From: Promethearchaeota archaeon
Lineage (GTDB): Archaea > Asgardarchaeota > Lokiarchaeia > Sigyniarchaeales > SOKP01
Direction: 5' to 3'
NCBI GenBank assembly: GCA_048939995.1
Contig: JBHLOY010000002.1
Location: forward strand, 128,001-192,000
Length of the DNA stretch: 64,000 nt
In this document: piece after piece, positions 420-9,688 of the stretch
Numbering within the stretch: position 1 is the stretch's first letter
Layout: every line of letters starts with the position of its first letter
The notes under the pieces: generated by a model
Database searches by the model: none
Told to the model about the DNA's origin: nothing
Seen by the model: the letters and a program-made list of their open reading frames with translations, nothing else
Position numbers and translations under genes: made by a program

Positions 420-1496
420 ATGCAAGAAATTGAAATTATTAAAAAATTATCAACGAGAATTGAAGATCGTCCTGAAGAGATTTTAAAATATATCCATATT
501 GGAATTAGCATTCCTGTATTGCCCCAATTCCATAAATATATTAAAAGTGATATTGAGGAATATAATGCTAAATCTATCCTTCTTGAAAACCAAATTGAAG
601 CGAAAGAATTCGGAAAACAAACCGATAATGTGATTGGTCATACTCTTATATACGATGATGGCGGAGAAGTATTATTTTTTGGATTTTTTAATATATATGA
701 TCATGATCCTAAGAAAATAGAACTTTTAGCAGATGAAATCATTAATTATGCTAAAGACAATGACTTTAGTATTATCAGGGGGCCAATTAATGTACCTACT
801 GTAATCTTTGGATGGGGATTTATGGTTGAGGGGAGTAGAAAAGACTTATTCATCGGATCTCCAATTAATCCACCAATCTATCAGCAAATCTTTATGGAAA
901 AAGGCTTCACTATCAAATTTCAAGAGGATAGGTACTGGATGCCTGCCTTAAAAATGGATCCCCATAATAATCCTGCTCTAGTCAAGAAAGGAGTAAATTT
1001 TGCGGAATATGAATTTAGCAATCCAGGAAGAGATGGGTTGATGGCAATTAAGGAAGAATATATTGAGCTTCACGCGACCTACATGCCGAATTCGGCTCGT
1101 ATTACTCCCAGAGCATCAAAGAATTTTGATAATATTGTAGATTTCACCCATACCTTTGGTGCAAACTGGATGATGTGGATTGTTCGCCATAAAGAATCTG
1201 GTCAGATGGCAGGGTGTGGATATATTATCCCTGATATTTTTCACTTAAATCGTAAAGGTGAATTAGATTCAGTAAGTTTTCATGATTGGGTTGTACATCC
1301 TGATCATCGCCGTAAGTATTTGTCAATGCTTATGTATGGAGAGACCTCTCTTCTTGCGAAAGACCGAAGAACACCTCACTATATTAATCGTGGATCATGG
1401 CCCGTAGGAGCGGATAATGTGGCAAATGCGAACGCTGCCATGAAGATGGGTGGAAAGAAAGATAGAAGCCATATAATTCTGGAAAAAACAGTCTAA
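420..1496 (+). CDS. GNAT-fold N-acyltransferase-like protein (YghO-like, two GNAT lobes)
   Basis: LFFGFF, IRGPIN..GWGF, N-P-x-Y and C-terminal VHPDHRRKYLS acetyl-CoA-binding-like segments. Confidence 0.6.
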   Translation: MQEIEIIKKLSTRIEDRPEEILKYIHIGISIPVLPQFHKYIKSDIEEYNAKSILLENQIEAKEFGKQTDNVIGHTLIYDDGGEVLFFGFFNIYDHDPKKIELLADEIINYAKDNDFSIIRGPINVPTVIFGWGFMVEGSRKDLFIGSPINPPIYQQIFMEKGFTIKFQEDRYWMPALKMDPHNNPALVKKGVNFAEYEFSNPGRDGLMAIKEEYIELHATYMPNSARITPRASKNFDNIVDFTHTFGANWMMWIVRHKESGQMAGCGYIIPDIFHLNRKGELDSVSFHDWVVHPDHRRKYLSMLMYGETSLLAKDRRTPHYINRGSWPVGADNVANANAAMKMGGKKDRSHIILEKTV

Positions 1497-1509: not shown

Positions 1510-1869
1510 TTAATATCTATTATTTTTTTCTTTGAGTTTTCTATAAATATTATCTACTTTTAATTCAAGTTCAGTTAGAGTTTTCTTTTTTTCATTTAGT
1601 TCCTTCTCTAATTTGGCGCATATTTTTACATTTTTCCTTTGGTGTTCTAAATTTGCATAAAATGGGAAAAAATTAATGAGTTTATCAATAGTATTCTCTC
1701 CAAGTTTTAAAATGGCCTTCCTAAGTACGATATCTTCTATTTTTCCTGTTTTTAATTCTTTTATTAGCGATTTTAGTTTAAGTAGTTCATCGCCATCTAG
1801 CACGATTGAAATTAAATTATCTCGCAAGGTCTTATTATTATCAAAATCTTTTCCTTTAGCTGAGGTCAT
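1510..1869 (-). CDS. Hypothetical protein with C-terminal coiled coil; last gene of the membrane operon
   Basis: 119-aa ORF with AGGT SD, 7 nt after the apparent ancestral stop of the upstream gene. Confidence 0.6.
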   Translation of the reverse strand: MTSAKGKDFDNNKTLRDNLISIVLDGDELLKLKSLIKELKTGKIEDIVLRKAILKLGENTIDKLINFFPFYANLEHQRKNVKICAKLEKELNEKKKTLTELELKVDNIYRKLKEKNNRY

Positions 1870-1876
1870 TATTTAC

Positions 1877-2447
1877 CTACTCTCCTCTAACTCGAGATAT
1901 ACTTTTATAAAAATGTACTCGAATCTTTTTTTTTCTGGACTACTTGGAATGAAAAGGGAAGGGTAGGTTCGACAGTAGAAAGGCTTCTTAGAAATTGATT
2001 AATATTCGCATGTACAGTTTCAGGAACTACTTCAATCCTGAAAATCTTTAATCCAACAGTTAGAAGGTCAACCTTGTTCGTATAGAATATAATTTTAGGG
2101 TCATTAATAATGGTCCAAAATACAATATCTTTGAATGGATTTATAGATTGAAATTGAAATAATCCTTTTAGATGAAAGAATGACTCCCGAAATATTAATG
2201 AAAATATACTAATAAGAAGAATTGCAGATCCTAAAGCTATATAGACATTGTTAATAAGTAAATAGATGCATACTGAAAATAAAATTCCTAATATTACTAA
2301 AAATATTAGCTTAAATATTGAAAAGATGCTATTAGTATCATTGTAAGAAGGATGGATATCCCAAATCATCTTAAAATCTTCATTTGTGTCTTTTCTATCA
2401 GAATTTTGCTCACTTCCATTAAGAAAGTTTGTATAAAGATTAGTTAT
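1877..2447 (-). pseudogene. 2-TM membrane protein with cytoplasmic domain, frameshifted or internally deleted at an A9 tract; probable ATA start at 2447
   Basis: Frame is open from ATA 2447 right after GGAG and the upstream stop; main frame stops at 1905 just after T9 (1926-1934); a second frame reads KIRVHFYKSISRVRGE* to 1877, abutting the next gene. Confidence 0.5.
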
Positions 2448-2448
2448 T

Positions 2449-3279
2449 TTATTTCTCCCCCCTAAGAAAGAATTTTAGATACAATAATAAAGTCAAAAAG
2501 CCACTTCCAAAAAAAATCACAAGCAAAAGGCTTATAGCGAAAGTTAAATAAGGAAACATAATCATCTCATATAGAATTACACTCCCTAATAAAAAGAAAA
2601 AAATAATTGCCCCTATTATTACACATCCTAAACAAAAGGTTCTTATCCTGTTATTATTCCCCGAAAAAGATAGGATCTTCTTTTGTTTTGTAATTGATGT
2701 TTCTAATTGTTTCATATGTATGGCTTCCTCAAAGGAGCTTTTATGGAACCTCTGCTGTAATGTTTTCTGAAGTAAAACTTCTCTCTGACGTATATTATGG
2801 AGAAGAAGCTGTCTTGCTTTATTATTATCACTCTCATTCTTTTTATTTCGTGTCATTACCATAAAAAGATTTAAGTCCCTATGTTCAGGCCAAATATCGT
2901 CACCTAAAACCTGGTAGATATCTGGAACATCCATCTCTTGTAATTCATAATATAATGTAAAAATCTCTTTAATCTGATCATAGGAAATTTCACCTCGAAG
3001 TTTTAACAACATCAATTCTGCTAGTTTAAGGCGCTCCAATGTTGAAGTTTGAAAAATTGGGCTTTTAATAAAATTATAAAATGTTTCATTTATGAACTCT
3101 AAATAACTATAGAGATGTTCATTTTCCTTCTTTTTACGAGGTCGGAATCCTAAATAAGCACCTATCTCATCAATTGTATTGCTTAAAAGAACAAACCCTA
3201 CTACTGCTAATTTTTTAAAATTATGTGTTTGTTTGCATAGGTGAATAAGAAGCTTTAATTTAGAGTTTACATTATTCAT
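2449..3279 (-). CDS. Hypothetical protein with helical N-domain and two C-terminal TM helices
   Basis: Hydrophobic C-terminal hairpin; ATGA overlap with the upstream gene. Confidence 0.7.
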   Translation of the reverse strand: MNNVNSKLKLLIHLCKQTHNFKKLAVVGFVLLSNTIDEIGAYLGFRPRKKKENEHLYSYLEFINETFYNFIKSPIFQTSTLERLKLAELMLLKLRGEISYDQIKEIFTLYYELQEMDVPDIYQVLGDDIWPEHRDLNLFMVMTRNKKNESDNNKARQLLLHNIRQREVLLQKTLQQRFHKSSFEEAIHMKQLETSITKQKKILSFSGNNNRIRTFCLGCVIIGAIIFFFLLGSVILYEMIMFPYLTFAISLLLVIFFGSGFLTLLLYLKFFLRGEK

Positions 3280-3971
3280 GCCCTTATCACACTCTTTTGT
3301 TTTTTATTATTAGATGCGTTTTTATATTGATTAAGCACAAGTTCCTCTTCTTGGATATATTTATCTAAATCAAGAGGTTCTTGAATTTTCTGAATATATT
3401 TCTCTAATATTCCTTCAGAAGATTGAGGGTTTTGTTCTAATGAGGTTGCTATCCTATAATATAAAATTGTATAAGGAAATAAGAAGATAAAGCTGATTAC
3501 TTCCATAATATATCCGATGTTAATTGAATATTGAAAGATAACTTCCAAATCGGGATCATAGAACGAAATATTTGGGAAATAATATTGATAGGGGAATAAG
3601 TACATAATAGGATAAACTACTATGAAAAATACGACTAAAAGCAATGTGAAAATATTTATGTATGAAACTAATCTATTCGGAGTTCTATAAACTAAGCCTA
3701 TTAAGGTAAATGCTAAACTGACAAGAAAACAAATCACAATTATAAATGGTAAAGACTCTGCAGTTGGGGTATAGATTTCATTAAATATTGATCCTGATGC
3801 AAAGATGGTATACCAGTTAAAAATAGGATTATAACTCCAATAGACTACAAGGTTTCCGTTCTCGTCAAAAGCTTGGAAAATATACCAATCAAAAAACAAG
3901 AAAACTCCTGCAATAATAATTCCTATTATAAACATTATCCGTGTAAAACTAGGGATCTTAATTAAGAACAC
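3276..3971 (-). CDS. Integral membrane protein (about 4 TM)
   Basis: Four hydrophobic segments; GTG start 3 nt after the upstream stop. Confidence 0.7.
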   Translation of the reverse strand: MFLIKIPSFTRIMFIIGIIIAGVFLFFDWYIFQAFDENGNLVVYWSYNPIFNWYTIFASGSIFNEIYTPTAESLPFIIVICFLVSLAFTLIGLVYRTPNRLVSYINIFTLLLVVFFIVVYPIMYLFPYQYYFPNISFYDPDLEVIFQYSINIGYIMEVISFIFLFPYTILYYRIATSLEQNPQSSEGILEKYIQKIQEPLDLDKYIQEEELVLNQYKNASNNKKQKSVIRA

Positions 3972-3974
3972 CTC

Positions 3975-5726
3975 TTATTCAGCCAAAAATTCATAAATCT
4001 TAGCGTGGTATCCATCTTCTTTATTTTCTGGGTCATCATCTTCTTGTTCGAATAAATCTTCTAAATCTTTCTCTTGAGGTTTTAGAAGTTGATTCTTGAT
4101 CATCAGTTCAGATTTTGTATGTTCAATTTTATTCAATAACCTATATGGATTCGATTTACCGAAACATTCATAACCAAGCTGAAGCATTAAATCATCAATA
4201 AACTCTTGATAAATTATCTCTAAACTTGCCTCATCTAATGTTATTTGCCTTTGATAACTATGGATCATATACTGATCCCTAATATTCTTTCTCTTAACCC
4301 TAAAAATATAAAAAAGATATGCTACTAATGCGGTATAAATGCCAAGTATCACATAACTTAACCCTATAAACGGAAGGAGCAAAGAAGGTATTTGTGTTAA
4401 TGCTACAATTATAGTAAGAAACCCAAAACCAAAGGGTAAAAGAGAGTATCGCAGAAGTTGCTTTTGAAACCTTTGATTTGCTTGATTTTCTGTAATTTCA
4501 CCTTCTTGTGCAGTATTATATTCTGCTACAAACTTATGCTTATTCTCCAGAAACTGTGTAAGCGTGGTAACTTGATTTTCTTGAATAAAATGAATATTTG
4601 AGCTTTTTTGATAAGCAAAAGGAATTGATTTCTCTAAGAACTTAATTTCTGATAATGAGATTAAAATTGGATCAACATGAACTAAATAATGAGTTTTTGA
4701 AGAATTTAATAATACCTCATCACTCTCATAAAAATTCTGGTTTACTTCAAAATTAGTTATCAAAAATTTCTGAATATACTCAAATAGAGCACCTTTATTT
4801 TTAACATTTTCAATTATATTATGCATTACTTCCGTTAAATTTGCAGCAAAATTATTGATCATTAGATTTTTCTCTCTTTGGCTTCGATAATAAATAGAAT
4901 CTTCAGAAATTATTAATAAATCATCAATTTGGGCAAATTTGATTGGATAAATGAAGATTATATGCTGAGTTTGCCTAAAAGAATCTACCTTAAATATTAA
5001 CTCATCTATATCCTGAAATTGATCCTTAATTTTCTCTAAAGGTATTGAGAAGTAACCTTTTGAGGTTAATTCTTCTATTATTTTTGCCTTAGAGTCTAAA
5101 ATCTCCGGTATCTCTTTAATCTCATCTGGAAGAATTTCTTCTTTTAGATATTCATGATATGAGGTCTGATCCTTAATTGAATCTAGTTGGTCTAAGGGTC
5201 CATTTAGCTTTGACTTAATCATTAGTTCTCTAGAGTCTTTTACAGGCTCAAATTCAACAGAAATTTTACTTTTTGGCTGGATGTTAAGATTAGTTTGCTT
5301 TGTTTTAGGATAATCGTTCAAATTAGAAATCCTTAGATACTCCTGTGCTGAGATAACCATTTGCTTCGCAGTTTCGATTCCTATTCCTTTAATACATGCT
5401 AATGTTTTTGGACTAGATTTAGCAATTTTCTCTATTGTATTATATCCTGCTTCCCATAATTTATGTTCATGAGTAGGACCTACTCCCTTCAGTTTTGTAA
5501 GACCTGCATTTAACTTTTTCTCCTCCTCCGCCTTATATGATTTCATGAGAACAAATGAAAGCTCTCTAAACTTAGTTGACCATTCTTTTTCTGCATGTAA
5601 TTCTGACTCTTCTATGCCCTTTTTTGCTAATTTTGCAGCTTGATCTGTATCCCCTGCTTCCAATGCTTGTTGTGTCATATCATATAGATAATTTAGATCC
5701 CATTTCTTTTCTAATAGGTCTTGCAT
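3975..5726 (-). CDS. Membrane-anchored helix-hairpin-helix DNA-binding protein (RadA-N-like HhH pair, 2 C-terminal TM)
   Basis: LTKLKGVGP..KLWEAGY.TIEKIA...LACIKGIG.ETAKQM; two TM helices near the C-terminus. Start moved from 5990 to ATG 5726 because it lies 31 nt from a TATA box and the longer ORF overlaps the divergent gene. Confidence 0.7.
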   Translation of the reverse strand: MQDLLEKKWDLNYLYDMTQQALEAGDTDQAAKLAKKGIEESELHAEKEWSTKFRELSFVLMKSYKAEEEKKLNAGLTKLKGVGPTHEHKLWEAGYNTIEKIAKSSPKTLACIKGIGIETAKQMVISAQEYLRISNLNDYPKTKQTNLNIQPKSKISVEFEPVKDSRELMIKSKLNGPLDQLDSIKDQTSYHEYLKEEILPDEIKEIPEILDSKAKIIEELTSKGYFSIPLEKIKDQFQDIDELIFKVDSFRQTQHIIFIYPIKFAQIDDLLIISEDSIYYRSQREKNLMINNFAANLTEVMHNIIENVKNKGALFEYIQKFLITNFEVNQNFYESDEVLLNSSKTHYLVHVDPILISLSEIKFLEKSIPFAYQKSSNIHFIQENQVTTLTQFLENKHKFVAEYNTAQEGEITENQANQRFQKQLLRYSLLPFGFGFLTIIVALTQIPSLLLPFIGLSYVILGIYTALVAYLFYIFRVKRKNIRDQYMIHSYQRQITLDEASLEIIYQEFIDDLMLQLGYECFGKSNPYRLLNKIEHTKSELMIKNQLLKPQEKDLEDLFEQEDDDPENKEDGYHAKIYEFLAE

Positions 5727-5834
5727 ACTATAAACTAATTTTTTCCTCATATATAAAGAAAAAATTTCCATGAAATGTTTGAAATTTTCCTTTAAATAGT
5801 TAAGAAAATTAGAATTCAGTTGAGGCTGGTAAAA

Positions 5835-6131
5835 ATGGGGATTGAGCTTAAAATTAAAAAGAATACGAAAGCAATACCAAGGAAGTTTTTTAAGTGTGCT
5901 CATTGTGGCTCTTTTATCGAAATTAAAATAGACTATAAAGTAGTAGAACAATCTAAAGAGAAAGGTCAGTTTATTATTCCTCATTTTCATCTACATGGTA
6001 ATCCCTTACATGGTACTCTCTGTCATTTTAACTTAAATGGAGATATAAGAAATATAGATATAATAGAAAATATCTCGGTTGCAAAAGAGCCAAATATTCT
6101 ATACCAAATACTAGATAAATTGTTAAACTAA
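5835..6131 (+). CDS. Small putative Zn-binding protein (CxxC ... HxHGxPxH family typical of Lokiarchaeia)
   Basis: CAHC and HFHLHGNPLH; ATG 5835 lies downstream of TATA 5791-5798. Confidence 0.65.
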   Translation: MGIELKIKKNTKAIPRKFFKCAHCGSFIEIKIDYKVVEQSKEKGQFIIPHFHLHGNPLHGTLCHFNLNGDIRNIDIIENISVAKEPNILYQILDKLLN

Positions 6132-6147
6132 CTTTAACAGGGAAATA

Positions 6148-7042
6148 ATGACTCTTCATAATTTCACCACTGATGAGATTCCAGAGTTAGTAAAACAAGA
6201 TAATGAGATCTTTAAATACATCTCTGATGATAGAATTCTCCGAGTACTATTCGAGCAAAAAATTTTTGTCTTAAGAGAAATTCAAAAAAAAGCTATTGAG
6301 AATGGTTTGTTTTTCCGAAAATCATTCTTAATTTGTTCACCTTCTGGGAGCGGAAAGACATTAATAGGAGAGATTTGTGCGTTTCATAATATATTTAATA
6401 ATTTTGGGAAATCTATATACTTGGTTCCGTTTAAGGCATTAGCCACTGAGAAATATTATTATTTCAAAAAATATTATAGCCGTTTTAAAGTAAATGTTAC
6501 ATTATCAATTGGAGATTATGATGTGGATGATTTGAAATTAGAAAAAGCAGACCTGGTTATTACCACATACGAAAAATGCGACTCGATTCTCAGAAATTTC
6601 TATGATAAAGCGTGGATCCACGATATCTCTACAATCATCATAGATGAGATACATATAGTAGGAGAATCAGACCGTGGTCCACGATTGGAATCATTAATAG
6701 TGCGATTAAACGAGTTTCTTCACCACCCCCAATTTAGAGCGAATTATCACTTTTATTGGAATTATTGCGATCCACTTAAGTGATAATTATATCGAACTTC
6801 AAGACAAAATGATTCATATTGCAGAGATAGCTGAGACTTTGAAGATTCGGGTACATTATGGAATAAAAGAACAATTATTCGATTTAGTATTGCGTTTAGA
6901 TAATGTAGCGCTGGTGAGCGCGCGTATTATTTATAACGCGGGCTATCATACCGCTACACAGGTACGTAAAGAGAATCCTTATAAATTACATTGCAAAACC
7001 GGATTAGGAATAAATATATGTAGAAAAATCATAAAAAGCTAA
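6148..7042 (+). pseudogene. hel308: Hel308/Ski2-like SF2 helicase with a large internal deletion and frameshift
   Basis: Q-motif (REIQ), PSGSGKT, VPFKALA, TTYEK and DEIH..RG in 6148-6730; a new frame from about 6730 gives NLERII...RVHYGIKEQLFDLV...ARIIYNAGY (Hel308 domains 4/5); motifs III-VI are absent. Confidence 0.85.
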
Positions 7043-8327: not shown

Positions 8328-9554
8328 ATGATCACTCAAAATATTCTCCCTTTCTATATAGTGCAGCATGAGGAATTATTTCCTAACACTATAGATGAAT
8401 ATCTGCTTAAATTATTCCCTCTAGTGGATGTAAATATAAATAATCGAGTATACTATCCATTTGAATTAGAAACTCGATTAGGAAATAAAAAAATAAATCC
8501 CTATCTGCGAATAGCTCAACCAGATGATGCTCCGAAGATTGCCGAGATTTGTAAAGAAGTATATGAATCCTCATATCCATATAAAGAAATGGAAGACGCT
8601 GTTCATATACATGAAATGATATTGAGTTCAAATCATCATTTTATCCTCTTTGAGACTGATACAGGAGAAAATGCAGGATGTTTTCGCTGTGCATTAGATT
8701 TTGAGCATAAAAAGGGATATATGGGAGGATTTATGGTTCGTAAGAAATTTCAAGGAAAATTGGACGTAGTACGAGCGATTATGGGATCTTATATTTGGAT
8801 GTGGAATTCTTTTAAAGATGAAATTTTGGTGTGGTATTGTGAGAATCGAACCGCTCATGCCACTTCTCAATATATTACCGCTATTTGTGGCATATACACC
8901 GTGGCCATCTTTCCTAATAAAGATCGATTCTTTGGTAAGATTGAATCGGATGTTATGGGTATTATCTATGTAGAGAAAGTATTGCGAGACTTACGAATCT
9001 CTCAAACTCCTTGTTTTATAGAAGCTGTAGAGAAACCATATCTGTATTCAGATAAATTATATAATCTTGGACTCTATAGAAAAGTAAAGCCAATGATTAA
9101 ATTAGATACACACAGGATTGATAAATTTAAGAAAGATTTTAGATGTAATGTTACAAAAGATAAGTATGGCTATGAATATTATTGTTTCTCTATAGAGCAT
9201 TCTGGCTCATACTTTAATTTTCTCCATAACAGCCATATTCAAAATCTTGAGAAAGCTGAATTTCGAGTTGATTCTACAGAAGAATTGTATTTATATATTC
9301 AAGAGCTAAAAAAATTAATGACCGACTTAAAAATTCGATATTGTGAGGTATTTGTCTCTGCTTATAATCCGGAATATCAACAATTATTCTTTAATGCAGG
9401 TTTTAGTCCAAGAGGATATGTACCTTGCTGGACCTATAACCCTGAAAAAAATAGATTTGAAGATAAAATTATTTTTAACTATTTCGAAGGAGATATTACC
9501 CATATAGATTTATTACCTCAAGGATATGAACTACTTAGTTGTATCCAGGTATGA
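8328..9554 (+). CDS. GNAT-family acetyltransferase-like protein (tandem GNAT)
   Basis: LRIAQPDDAPKIAEICKEVYESSYPY, FMVRKKFQG, ENRTAH..SQ, GFSPRGYVP. Confidence 0.65.
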   Translation: MITQNILPFYIVQHEELFPNTIDEYLLKLFPLVDVNINNRVYYPFELETRLGNKKINPYLRIAQPDDAPKIAEICKEVYESSYPYKEMEDAVHIHEMILSSNHHFILFETDTGENAGCFRCALDFEHKKGYMGGFMVRKKFQGKLDVVRAIMGSYIWMWNSFKDEILVWYCENRTAHATSQYITAICGIYTVAIFPNKDRFFGKIESDVMGIIYVEKVLRDLRISQTPCFIEAVEKPYLYSDKLYNLGLYRKVKPMIKLDTHRIDKFKKDFRCNVTKDKYGYEYYCFSIEHSGSYFNFLHNSHIQNLEKAEFRVDSTEELYLYIQELKKLMTDLKIRYCEVFVSAYNPEYQQLFFNAGFSPRGYVPCWTYNPEKNRFEDKIIFNYFEGDITHIDLLPQGYELLSCIQV

Positions 9555-9688
9555 TTTTTTTTTATACTAATTCATTCTGAATTTGTATCTTTGCTTACCT
9601 AATGGAATAAGAATTTTTTCTTGTATTGCTTTTCTAATATAGTGGTTCTTTAAGTCGCTCTTATCTAAATCAAAGGAAATTATTTTAG

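Follow-up and report, generated by a model that had tools for sequence, protein, structure and literature searches.

The window analysed here is a stretch of 64,000 nt from the genome of a Promethearchaeota archaeon (assembly GCA_048939995.1, contig JBHLOY010000002.1, positions 128,001 to 192,000). Close to its start lies an operon of five genes on the minus strand, which a sequence-only reading had taken for a possible undescribed Asgard module for competence, mating or DNA transfer. All coordinates are window positions; G000 designates the genome of the window and G019 the closest relative found, which served as reference for comparison. The source labels of the relatives are Promethearchaeota and, in one case, Hodarchaeota; we take G000 to belong to Lokiarchaeia. 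The genes, with the deletion that shortens one of them, are:

3975-5726, minus strand: gene 1, 583 aa from a conserved ATG, intact
3276-3971, minus strand: gene 2, 231 aa, four transmembrane (TM) segments with a beta-hairpin loop after TM1, intact
2449-3279, minus strand: gene 3, 276 aa, N-terminal domain of helices and two TM segments at the C-terminus, intact
1905-2447, minus strand: gene 4 stump, first ~179 codons with two TM segments and part of the first module resembling the VirB4 N-terminal domain (NTD); start codon ATA, ATG in the orthologue; 154 aa from the first ATG (open reading frame 1905-2369)
1907-1923: deletion junction, ~3.17 kb of the VirB4-like gene missing compared to G019
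1510-1869, minus strand: gene 5, 119 aa, soluble helical/coiled-coil protein, intact short form

The number of genes and the presence of TM or hydrophobic segments in four of them (genes 1-4) had been read correctly. The claimed spacing of 1-7 nt or overlap was found between genes 1 and 2 (3 nt) and between genes 2 and 3 (4-nt overlap), but not between genes 4 and 5 (35 nt). For genes 3 and 4 it holds only if gene 4 starts at ATA 2447 (1 nt); the distance to the first ATG is 79 nt.

Gene 4 is the N-terminal stump of a VirB4-like protein and owes its short form to the deletion. It is matched in 28 of the 36 genomes of the same genus, in most cases where a frame of ~1,235-1,320 aa begins, and positions 1873-1907, directly before gene 5, hold the last codons of the VirB4-like gene, out of frame. 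The segment QFLRSL..PFSFQVVQK is present as described earlier, but is not the mark of a PrgI/TraC-like partner of VirB4, since the match lies within the long VirB4-like frames themselves. The intact orthologue (~1,240-1,250 aa) consists of two modules, each formed by a pair of TM segments and one half of the VirB4 NTD, followed by a VirB4/HerA-fold domain and a winged helix. It thereby has the architecture of the VirB4 family, a two-part alpha/beta NTD joined to a C-terminal domain (CTD) of the FtsK/HerA fold.

The expected structural similarity to a DNA-transport component was observed with an AlphaFold2 (AF2) model of this orthologue (residues 25-1100; predicted local distance difference test, pLDDT, 84). 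The first 13 Foldseek matches are all chains from the type IV secretion complex of R388 (TrwK/VirB4), the best with an E-value of 9.5e-17 over ~1,000 columns, compared to 4e-10 for the best HerA match. VIA-align to TrwK yielded a Z-score of 27.0 with 595 aligned residues, covering model residues 78-932 including the NTD. The rmsd (root mean square deviation) of 13 Å is high because the domain orientation differs.

Judged from its motifs, the VirB4-like protein is a pseudo-ATPase. The Walker A motif GxxxxGK[ST] is absent from all 51 copies in the loci read and also from the library representatives checked, the Walker B position reads PHxD and the RK arginine finger is gone. As the absence of Walker A is common to all copies, the loss of the motif is ancient. 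Pairwise ratios of nonsynonymous to synonymous substitution rates (dN/dS) are about 0.1-0.2. Other lineages possess one-module (~820-850 aa) and split forms of the protein, a layout also seen in CedB and CedD.

The operon is the membrane arm at one end of a ~35-kb chromosomal island of Lokiarchaeia. In the family of the window, the island also holds genes for a Hel308 helicase, a Zn-ribbon protein, a Hef-like helicase, a winged-helix protein, a prenyltransferase-fold surface protein and a paralogue of transcription factor B (TFB), further an M50-like protease, RadB and RadA paralogues and small membrane proteins. The intact orthologue of the island Hel308 has the DExH superfamily 2 (SF2) core with Walker A and DExH kept, and the ratchet domain. 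In the window, the following features of the island and its border were identified:

420-1496, plus strand: flanking gene, conserved beside the island, with the same promoter motif at 350
5750-5763, minus strand: promoter motif upstream of gene 1
5785-5798, plus strand: promoter motif upstream of the Zn-finger/Hel308 transcript
5820-6131, plus strand: small Cys/His Zn-finger protein, conserved before Hel308
6148-7042, plus strand: remnants of a Hel308-family helicase, residues ~11-205 and ~747-847 of the 851-aa orthologue
8328-9554: GNAT-fold gene
9542-9716: site of missing genes, ~2.7 kb with the Zn-ribbon and Hef-like helicase genes in G019
10356-12680, minus strand: membrane-anchored surface protein with a prenyltransferase fold, conserved in the island, intact
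12774-14021, minus strand: divergent TFB paralogue, intact
14224-14237, plus strand: promoter motif at the head of the operon of M50 peptidase, small TM protein and RadB
14259-15035, plus strand: M50-like membrane metalloprotease
15032-15376, plus strand: 114-aa TM protein
15377-15985, plus strand: RadB-like paralogue, cut short, with ~190 of 234 residues left

The helicase remnants confirm the divergent arrangement of the operon and a Hel308-like gene. The promoter motif TTTT(C/T)C-TTTAWATA, a T-tract followed by C and a TATA box, occurs 12 times in the 3.75-Mb genome, five of these within the 16-kb island (350(+), 5763(-), 5785(+), 14224(+) and 16184(+)). A promoter motif shared with the RadB paralogue had been claimed; this is true by way of the operon head at 14224, but the exact 17-mer lies downstream of RadB. 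With a relaxed pattern, the motif precedes 21 of 30 gene 1 orthologues compared to 19 of 311 background reading frames. We infer that the TFB paralogue is a candidate reader of the motif.

Deletions have removed the core of the island in G000. Compared to G019, it has lost the core of the VirB4-like gene, the core of Hel308 (a ~1.63-kb deletion at 6731-6733), Hef, the Zn-ribbon gene, the C-terminus of RadB, the RadA paralogue and three more genes. Neither the missing part of the VirB4-like gene nor the RadA paralogue and the three further genes that follow RadB in relatives were found elsewhere in the G000 genome. Genes 1, 2, 3 and 5 and the genes for TFB, the surface protein, the protease and GNAT are intact. 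An assembly artefact was ruled out as the cause, since contigs from other studies bridge both junctions without gaps, namely 1907-1923 (X5 record 9, 1342-2333; X4 record 2, 1370-2037) and 6731-6733 (X5 record 15; X9 record 32). The deletions are therefore real in the population. The ends of some contigs coincide with the junctions or lie close to them (X4 record 7 stops at 6732), and a minority allele that is intact may exist in the population. The related-locus search gave no gene 1 relative in genome contigs and one gene 3 relative in metagenomes, so that no close intact sister strain is at hand for comparison.

The remaining stumps carry 18 substitutions on the G000 branch versus 24 on the G019 branch, which suggests that the deletions in G000 are recent. 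For genes 2 and 3 together the numbers are 65 versus 37, for control genes 235 versus 400. Apart from the remnants, the island Hel308 is matched in the G000 assembly only by a Ski2-like gene of 30% identity (contig C28), and the organism may thus lack an intact Hel308. The island copy of G000 is a relic that is non-functional for DNA handling, and its value is that of a natural knock-out. With the module broken, there is no working uptake machine in this genome.

The order of the five genes and the divergent helicase are kept in nearly all loci read from the genus and family. The long VirB4-like gene is matched in 103 of the 134 genomes of the family, and the CTD profile in 219 of 400 genomes of the phylum, where weak matches may be ordinary HerA. 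Hel308 is present in the ~20-kb stretch read around the VirB4-like gene in 33 of 49 loci. In distant Asgard families, too, the VirB4-like gene lies near a Hel308-like gene, and RadA or RadB paralogues frequently accompany it. The anticipated linkage with recombination genes (Hel308, RadA, RadB and Hef paralogues) is hence conserved across Asgard families. The expectation that a HerA/VirB4 ATPase would occupy a deleted interval was borne out in part: a VirB4-like gene is located there, but no copy has ATPase motifs. Genes 2 and 3 were seen only in the family of the window among the loci read, gene 4 throughout the phylum. In G067, genes 1-3 and gene 4 are situated on different contigs.

A second, separate erosion was observed in G077, a genome of another genus (98% complete). 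On one contig it retains genes 1-3 together with the TFB, the surface protein, ThiF and GNAT. The locus is devoid of Hel308, Hef and RadB as well as of the VirB4-like gene and the protease, and short remnants of neighbours persist. The Hel308 core and the RadA paralogue were not found in the G077 genome. Its one VirB4-like copy groups with a clade of non-island paralogues in a quick tree (support 100 and 97).

Co-occurrence was analysed in 13 genomes of at least 90% completeness that lack a strong VirB4-like match and 14 genomes that possess the gene. Gene 3 was found in none of the 13 and all of the 14, the Hel308 core in 2/13 versus 13/14 and the RadA paralogue in 4/13 versus 11/14. The TFB paralogue is present in all 14 genomes with the VirB4-like gene and was not found in eight of the 13 without it. 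Apparent decay at contig ends (G151, G026, G110, G132, G022 and G024) was not taken as erosion. Given linked genes and draft assemblies, the co-occurrence counts are weaker evidence than the two erosions within single contigs (G000 and G077). That two lineages have lost the VirB4-like gene in parallel with the recombination genes suggests that they form one undescribed DNA-handling machine. In the single-contig genome G044 the VirB4-like gene seems fragmented (L089:9255-11568), a possible further decay. Two or three full island copies per assembly were seen in G008 (C12, C20, C49) and G017 (C32, C68), whose contamination is 8-9%; these represent either duplication or mixed strains.

The other proteins of the operon are less telling. 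Gene 1 encodes an N-terminal helical domain, a RadA-N-like HhH (helix-hairpin-helix) pair, a low-complexity linker, an alpha/beta domain, a coiled coil with two TM segments and C-terminal helices, which confirms the proposed HhH pair with a two-TM anchor. The HHH_5 domain spans residues 76-129 (E-value 3.6e-12), with the N-termini of archaeal RadA proteins as top PDB matches. A faint resemblance of the central domain to PD-(D/E)xK nucleases had also been noted. It is reflected in a weak fold match and in a nearly invariant Asp (D241), but P-I-K or P-I-I replaces the expected ExK, so that a catalytic D...(D/E)xK site is missing. The core (AF2 model, pLDDT 86) matched Cdn1 (8z4i) weakly, with a Z-score of 8.8 and an rmsd of 2.8 over 115 aligned residues (model residues 1-192). 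Foldseek gave no match to the core at E ≤ 0.001; rows for Rpb5, Mrr and NERD were weak (E > 0.01), and the helical hairpin of the model dominated the fold searches. An ESM Atlas model of the core was of low confidence and matched nothing useful. The models weakly indicate that the alpha/beta core is at most a dead nuclease fold.

Gene 2 is a DUF4293-like bundle; its Atlas structure reaches TM-scores of 0.51-0.57 (by query) to four-TM proteins including DUF4293, and none of its matches is VirB6- or CedA-like. The N-terminal domain of gene 3 appears HEPN-like by eye, lacking RxxxxH. Longer orthologues of gene 5 carry an optional C-terminal HEPN-type domain with RxxxxH (L029, L030, L031, L033, L034, L041 and L042), and a domain related to this extension is encoded by a separate gene at L060:18950-19807. 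Sequence searches of genes 2-5 and full-length gene 4 against Pfam/NCBIfam and the PDB gave nothing useful; for gene 4, weak HerA matches from a deeper alignment of the CTD were the sole useful result of sequence searches.

Based on these results, our preferred reading, which we hold tentatively and with a confidence that falls short of even, is that the island encodes a TFB-controlled, Ced-like programme of DNA transfer and recombination that is inactive in G000. In intact genomes the TFB paralogue would switch on the island via the T-tract/TATA promoters. The pseudo-ATPase would form a ring or platform in the membrane at which DNA coming across the envelope is received, and the ATP-driven step would be supplied in trans by the co-encoded Hel308, by analogy to ComFA, the SF2 helicase analogue in Bacillus competence. 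RadA, RadB and Hef paralogues would then recombine the incoming DNA into the chromosome, while genes 1-3 would encode auxiliary membrane proteins, controlled in the same way, whose role persists once the machine is gone. With less confidence still, we consider it possible that Asgard archaea possess an inducible parasexual programme under TFB control, in which a domesticated dead-motor VirB4 scaffold passes DNA between cells and the Hel308/RadA/RadB/Hef set recombines it. The VirB4 fold and the linkage speak for the DNA-transfer module as originally proposed. Against it speak the dead ATPase, the searches that found no channel or proven pilin, the absence of the HhH pair from two gene 1 orthologues (L036 and L037), the survival of genes 1-3 in two lineages that lost the VirB4-like gene and the recombination genes, and the broken state in G000.

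Several observations weigh against our preferred reading. Besides the loss of Walker A, no active ATPase linked to the island was found. Taken by itself, the ATPase domain resembles VirB4, DndH and HerA to about the same degree (Z-scores of 24.5, 24.3 and 22.9), so that the assignment to VirB4 rests on the NTD. TrbL/VirB6 (PF04610) did not exceed the cut-off in five genomes, a search in which CedA is a difficult target, as CedA-VirB6 homology requires profile-profile comparison. ComEC (PF03772) was not found in five genomes including the complete G055, with 11 of 14 controls detected. The small island proteins with two to three TM segments have no pilin match by sequence. Joint loss or joint oversight of linked genes may have trivial causes, and kin are not independent. 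An unlinked, active, HerA-like ATPase with three TM segments is present in 10/13 genomes without the VirB4-like gene versus 12/14 with it.

The latter ATPase was rejected as an obligatory motor, as its distribution does not follow the island. It is a conserved, membrane-anchored HerA/VirD4-like protein with intact Walker A (L083:6090-7856 (-), L085:6879-8648, L076:2963-5737, L074:9115-11694 and L075:13329-16013), whose gene is situated close to an apparent rRNA locus, with a thermosome-like gene on one side and a P-loop GTPase gene on the other. A paralogue lies within the island of G079 (L114:13184-14953). Its absence from G000 is uninformative, since its neighbours are also unassembled; the canonical HerA genes of G000 lie elsewhere, one beside Mre11- and Rad50-like genes.

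Alternatively, the island could encode an intracellular, membrane-tethered platform for repair or chromosome processing that moves no DNA across the envelope. The cell's own DNA would be kept at the membrane by the HhH protein and by a pseudo-VirB4 ring with its winged helix, and the Hel308, Hef, RadA and RadB paralogues would act on it in a state of stress or differentiation. We regard this as somewhat unlikely, although it accounts for the dead motor and the missing channel and fits the same linkage and co-loss data. The DNA-binding-type domains moreover face the cytoplasm according to the topology predicted from the models. The NTD of VirB4 serves for docking to the secretion channel, and its complete retention in all lineages speaks against such a platform, as do the co-encoded surface proteins, membrane protease and small TM proteins.

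It is less likely again that two separable programmes share one TFB. A module for the envelope or for cell contact, with a job of its own, would then be formed by genes 1-3, the surface protein, GNAT and ThiF, the VirB4-like gene would belong to the recombination arm, the five-gene operon would be a juxtaposition and the HhH protein would have no part in a DNA uptake apparatus. The persistence of genes 1-3, TFB and the surface protein in G000 and G077 is as expected under this explanation, and so are the separate contigs in G067, the occurrence of genes 2 and 3 in one family only among the loci read and the gene 1 orthologues devoid of HhH. However, the excess of substitutions in genes 2 and 3 on the G000 branch is as expected after the loss of a partner, the deletions look recent, so that retention may be mere lag, and none of the 13 genomes of at least 90% completeness that lack gene 4 yielded a gene 3.

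A membrane system of the defence or toxin type, composed of a nuclease fold with two TM segments, a HEPN-like protein with two TM segments, a HEPN RNase and a HerA-like scaffold, is improbable. The weak restriction-endonuclease-like fold of gene 1, the RxxxxH extension of some gene 5 orthologues and HerA defence complexes among the structural matches would agree with it, but genes 1 and 3 lack catalytic residues and the HEPN extension is optional. Unlike patchy defence islands, the locus is syntenic, mostly single-copy and embedded among recombination genes with a TFB of its own. A decayed integrated conjugative element, suggested by the VirB4 fold, the extra copies outside the island and the erosion in some genomes, is very improbable for a gene that is present in most genomes of its family and in many Asgard families under the above dN/dS values, with a motif loss shared by all copies and hence ancient, and with no integrase or relaxase seen in the loci read, where no family-level search was made.

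Further observations concern members and relatives of the island. VirB4-like copies outside it were seen at L044, L056, L062, L064 and L065; those at L056 and L062 lie near P-loop ATPases of 640-680 aa with intact Walker A. Beside RadB in distant Asgard loci, a TM protein of 470-570 aa (L048:16143-17867, L051:10558-11973 and L067:5296-6711) appears by eye to be another protein of the VirB4-NTD type. A small island protein with two to three TM segments (L086:14710-15075 and orthologues, alignment A14) has a pilin-like hydrophobic pattern; neither G000 nor G077 yielded it. The palindrome TTGGACA-N4-TGTCCAA is located between the promoters of TFB and M50 (14021-14259). GNAT-fold/ThiF genes (420-1496 and 8328-9554 in the window) bear the island promoter motif in relatives, and G000 has a second cluster of GNAT, ThiF and partner genes elsewhere on the contig of the window (G000:C17:314741-317937, L079). 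As a speculation, GNAT/ThiF genes could make or modify a small signal or lipid.

No paper describing the island system was found, nor any described route by which Asgard archaea exchange DNA between cells; conjugation, DNA uptake and DNA transfer go unmentioned in a 2026 review of these organisms (PMC12993045). A phylum-wide island of a VirB4-like scaffold and recombination enzymes is a concrete candidate for DNA exchange in the lineage nearest to eukaryotes. The second Asgard RadA clade (PMC12722695) and the patchy distribution of Hel308 in Lokiarchaeia (PMC10946056) may also find a context in it, presuming the identity of the clades. Natural knock-outs matter in organisms without genetics: recombination rates can be compared between populations with and without the island, and two parallel losses reveal which genes travel together. 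If the parasexual reading is true, the deletions in G000 and G077 mark lineages that abandoned DNA exchange.

Among known systems, the ComEA-ComEC-ComFA machinery resembles the island by analogy, as in both a single locus combines an SF2 helicase with an HhH protein anchored in the membrane. Unlike in ComEA, the HhH pair of gene 1 is of the RadA-N/HHH_5 type, N-terminal to the anchor and predicted to be cytoplasmic, and no ComEC was found. Ring translocases such as HerA, DndH and TrwB share the fold of the CTD (Z-scores of 21-24), but lack the VirB4 NTD. TrwK/VirB4 of R388 (PDB 7o41-7o43, 8rtb and 8rtd) is the best structural match over NTD and CTD at ~10% identity, from which the island protein differs by its in-chain TM hairpins and its dead ATPase. 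No other genes of a type IV secretion system (T4SS) were recognised, and the island, in contrast to the R388 system, is not on a mobile element.

The closest parallels are Ced of Sulfolobales and Desulfurococcales (CedA, CedA1, CedA2, CedB and CedD) and Ted of Thermoproteales, chromosomal derivatives of T4SS that import DNA for repair (PMC9905601). The island is likewise chromosomal and archaeal, encodes a membrane-anchored VirB4/HerA-fold protein with TM and VirB4-NTD modules and has DNA-processing genes nearby. Control by an alternative TFB, known for Ced of Sulfolobales (TFB3, PMC11823120), is presumed for the island. The island works like Ced and Ted but is not a member, because its VirB4-like protein, devoid of Walker A and B, is not an active ATPase and a channel and pilin are unproven; no homologue of CedA/VirB6 or CedA1 was identified. 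CedB and CedD each carry TM segments and part of the VirB4 NTD (PMC11868833), whereas the island family has both NTD halves, with their own TM hairpins, in one chain, like CedB and CedD placed head to tail, and ends in a winged helix. Distinct from Ced are also genes 1, 2, 3 and 5, which have no counterpart there, and the dedicated Hel308, Hef, RadA and RadB paralogues of the island.

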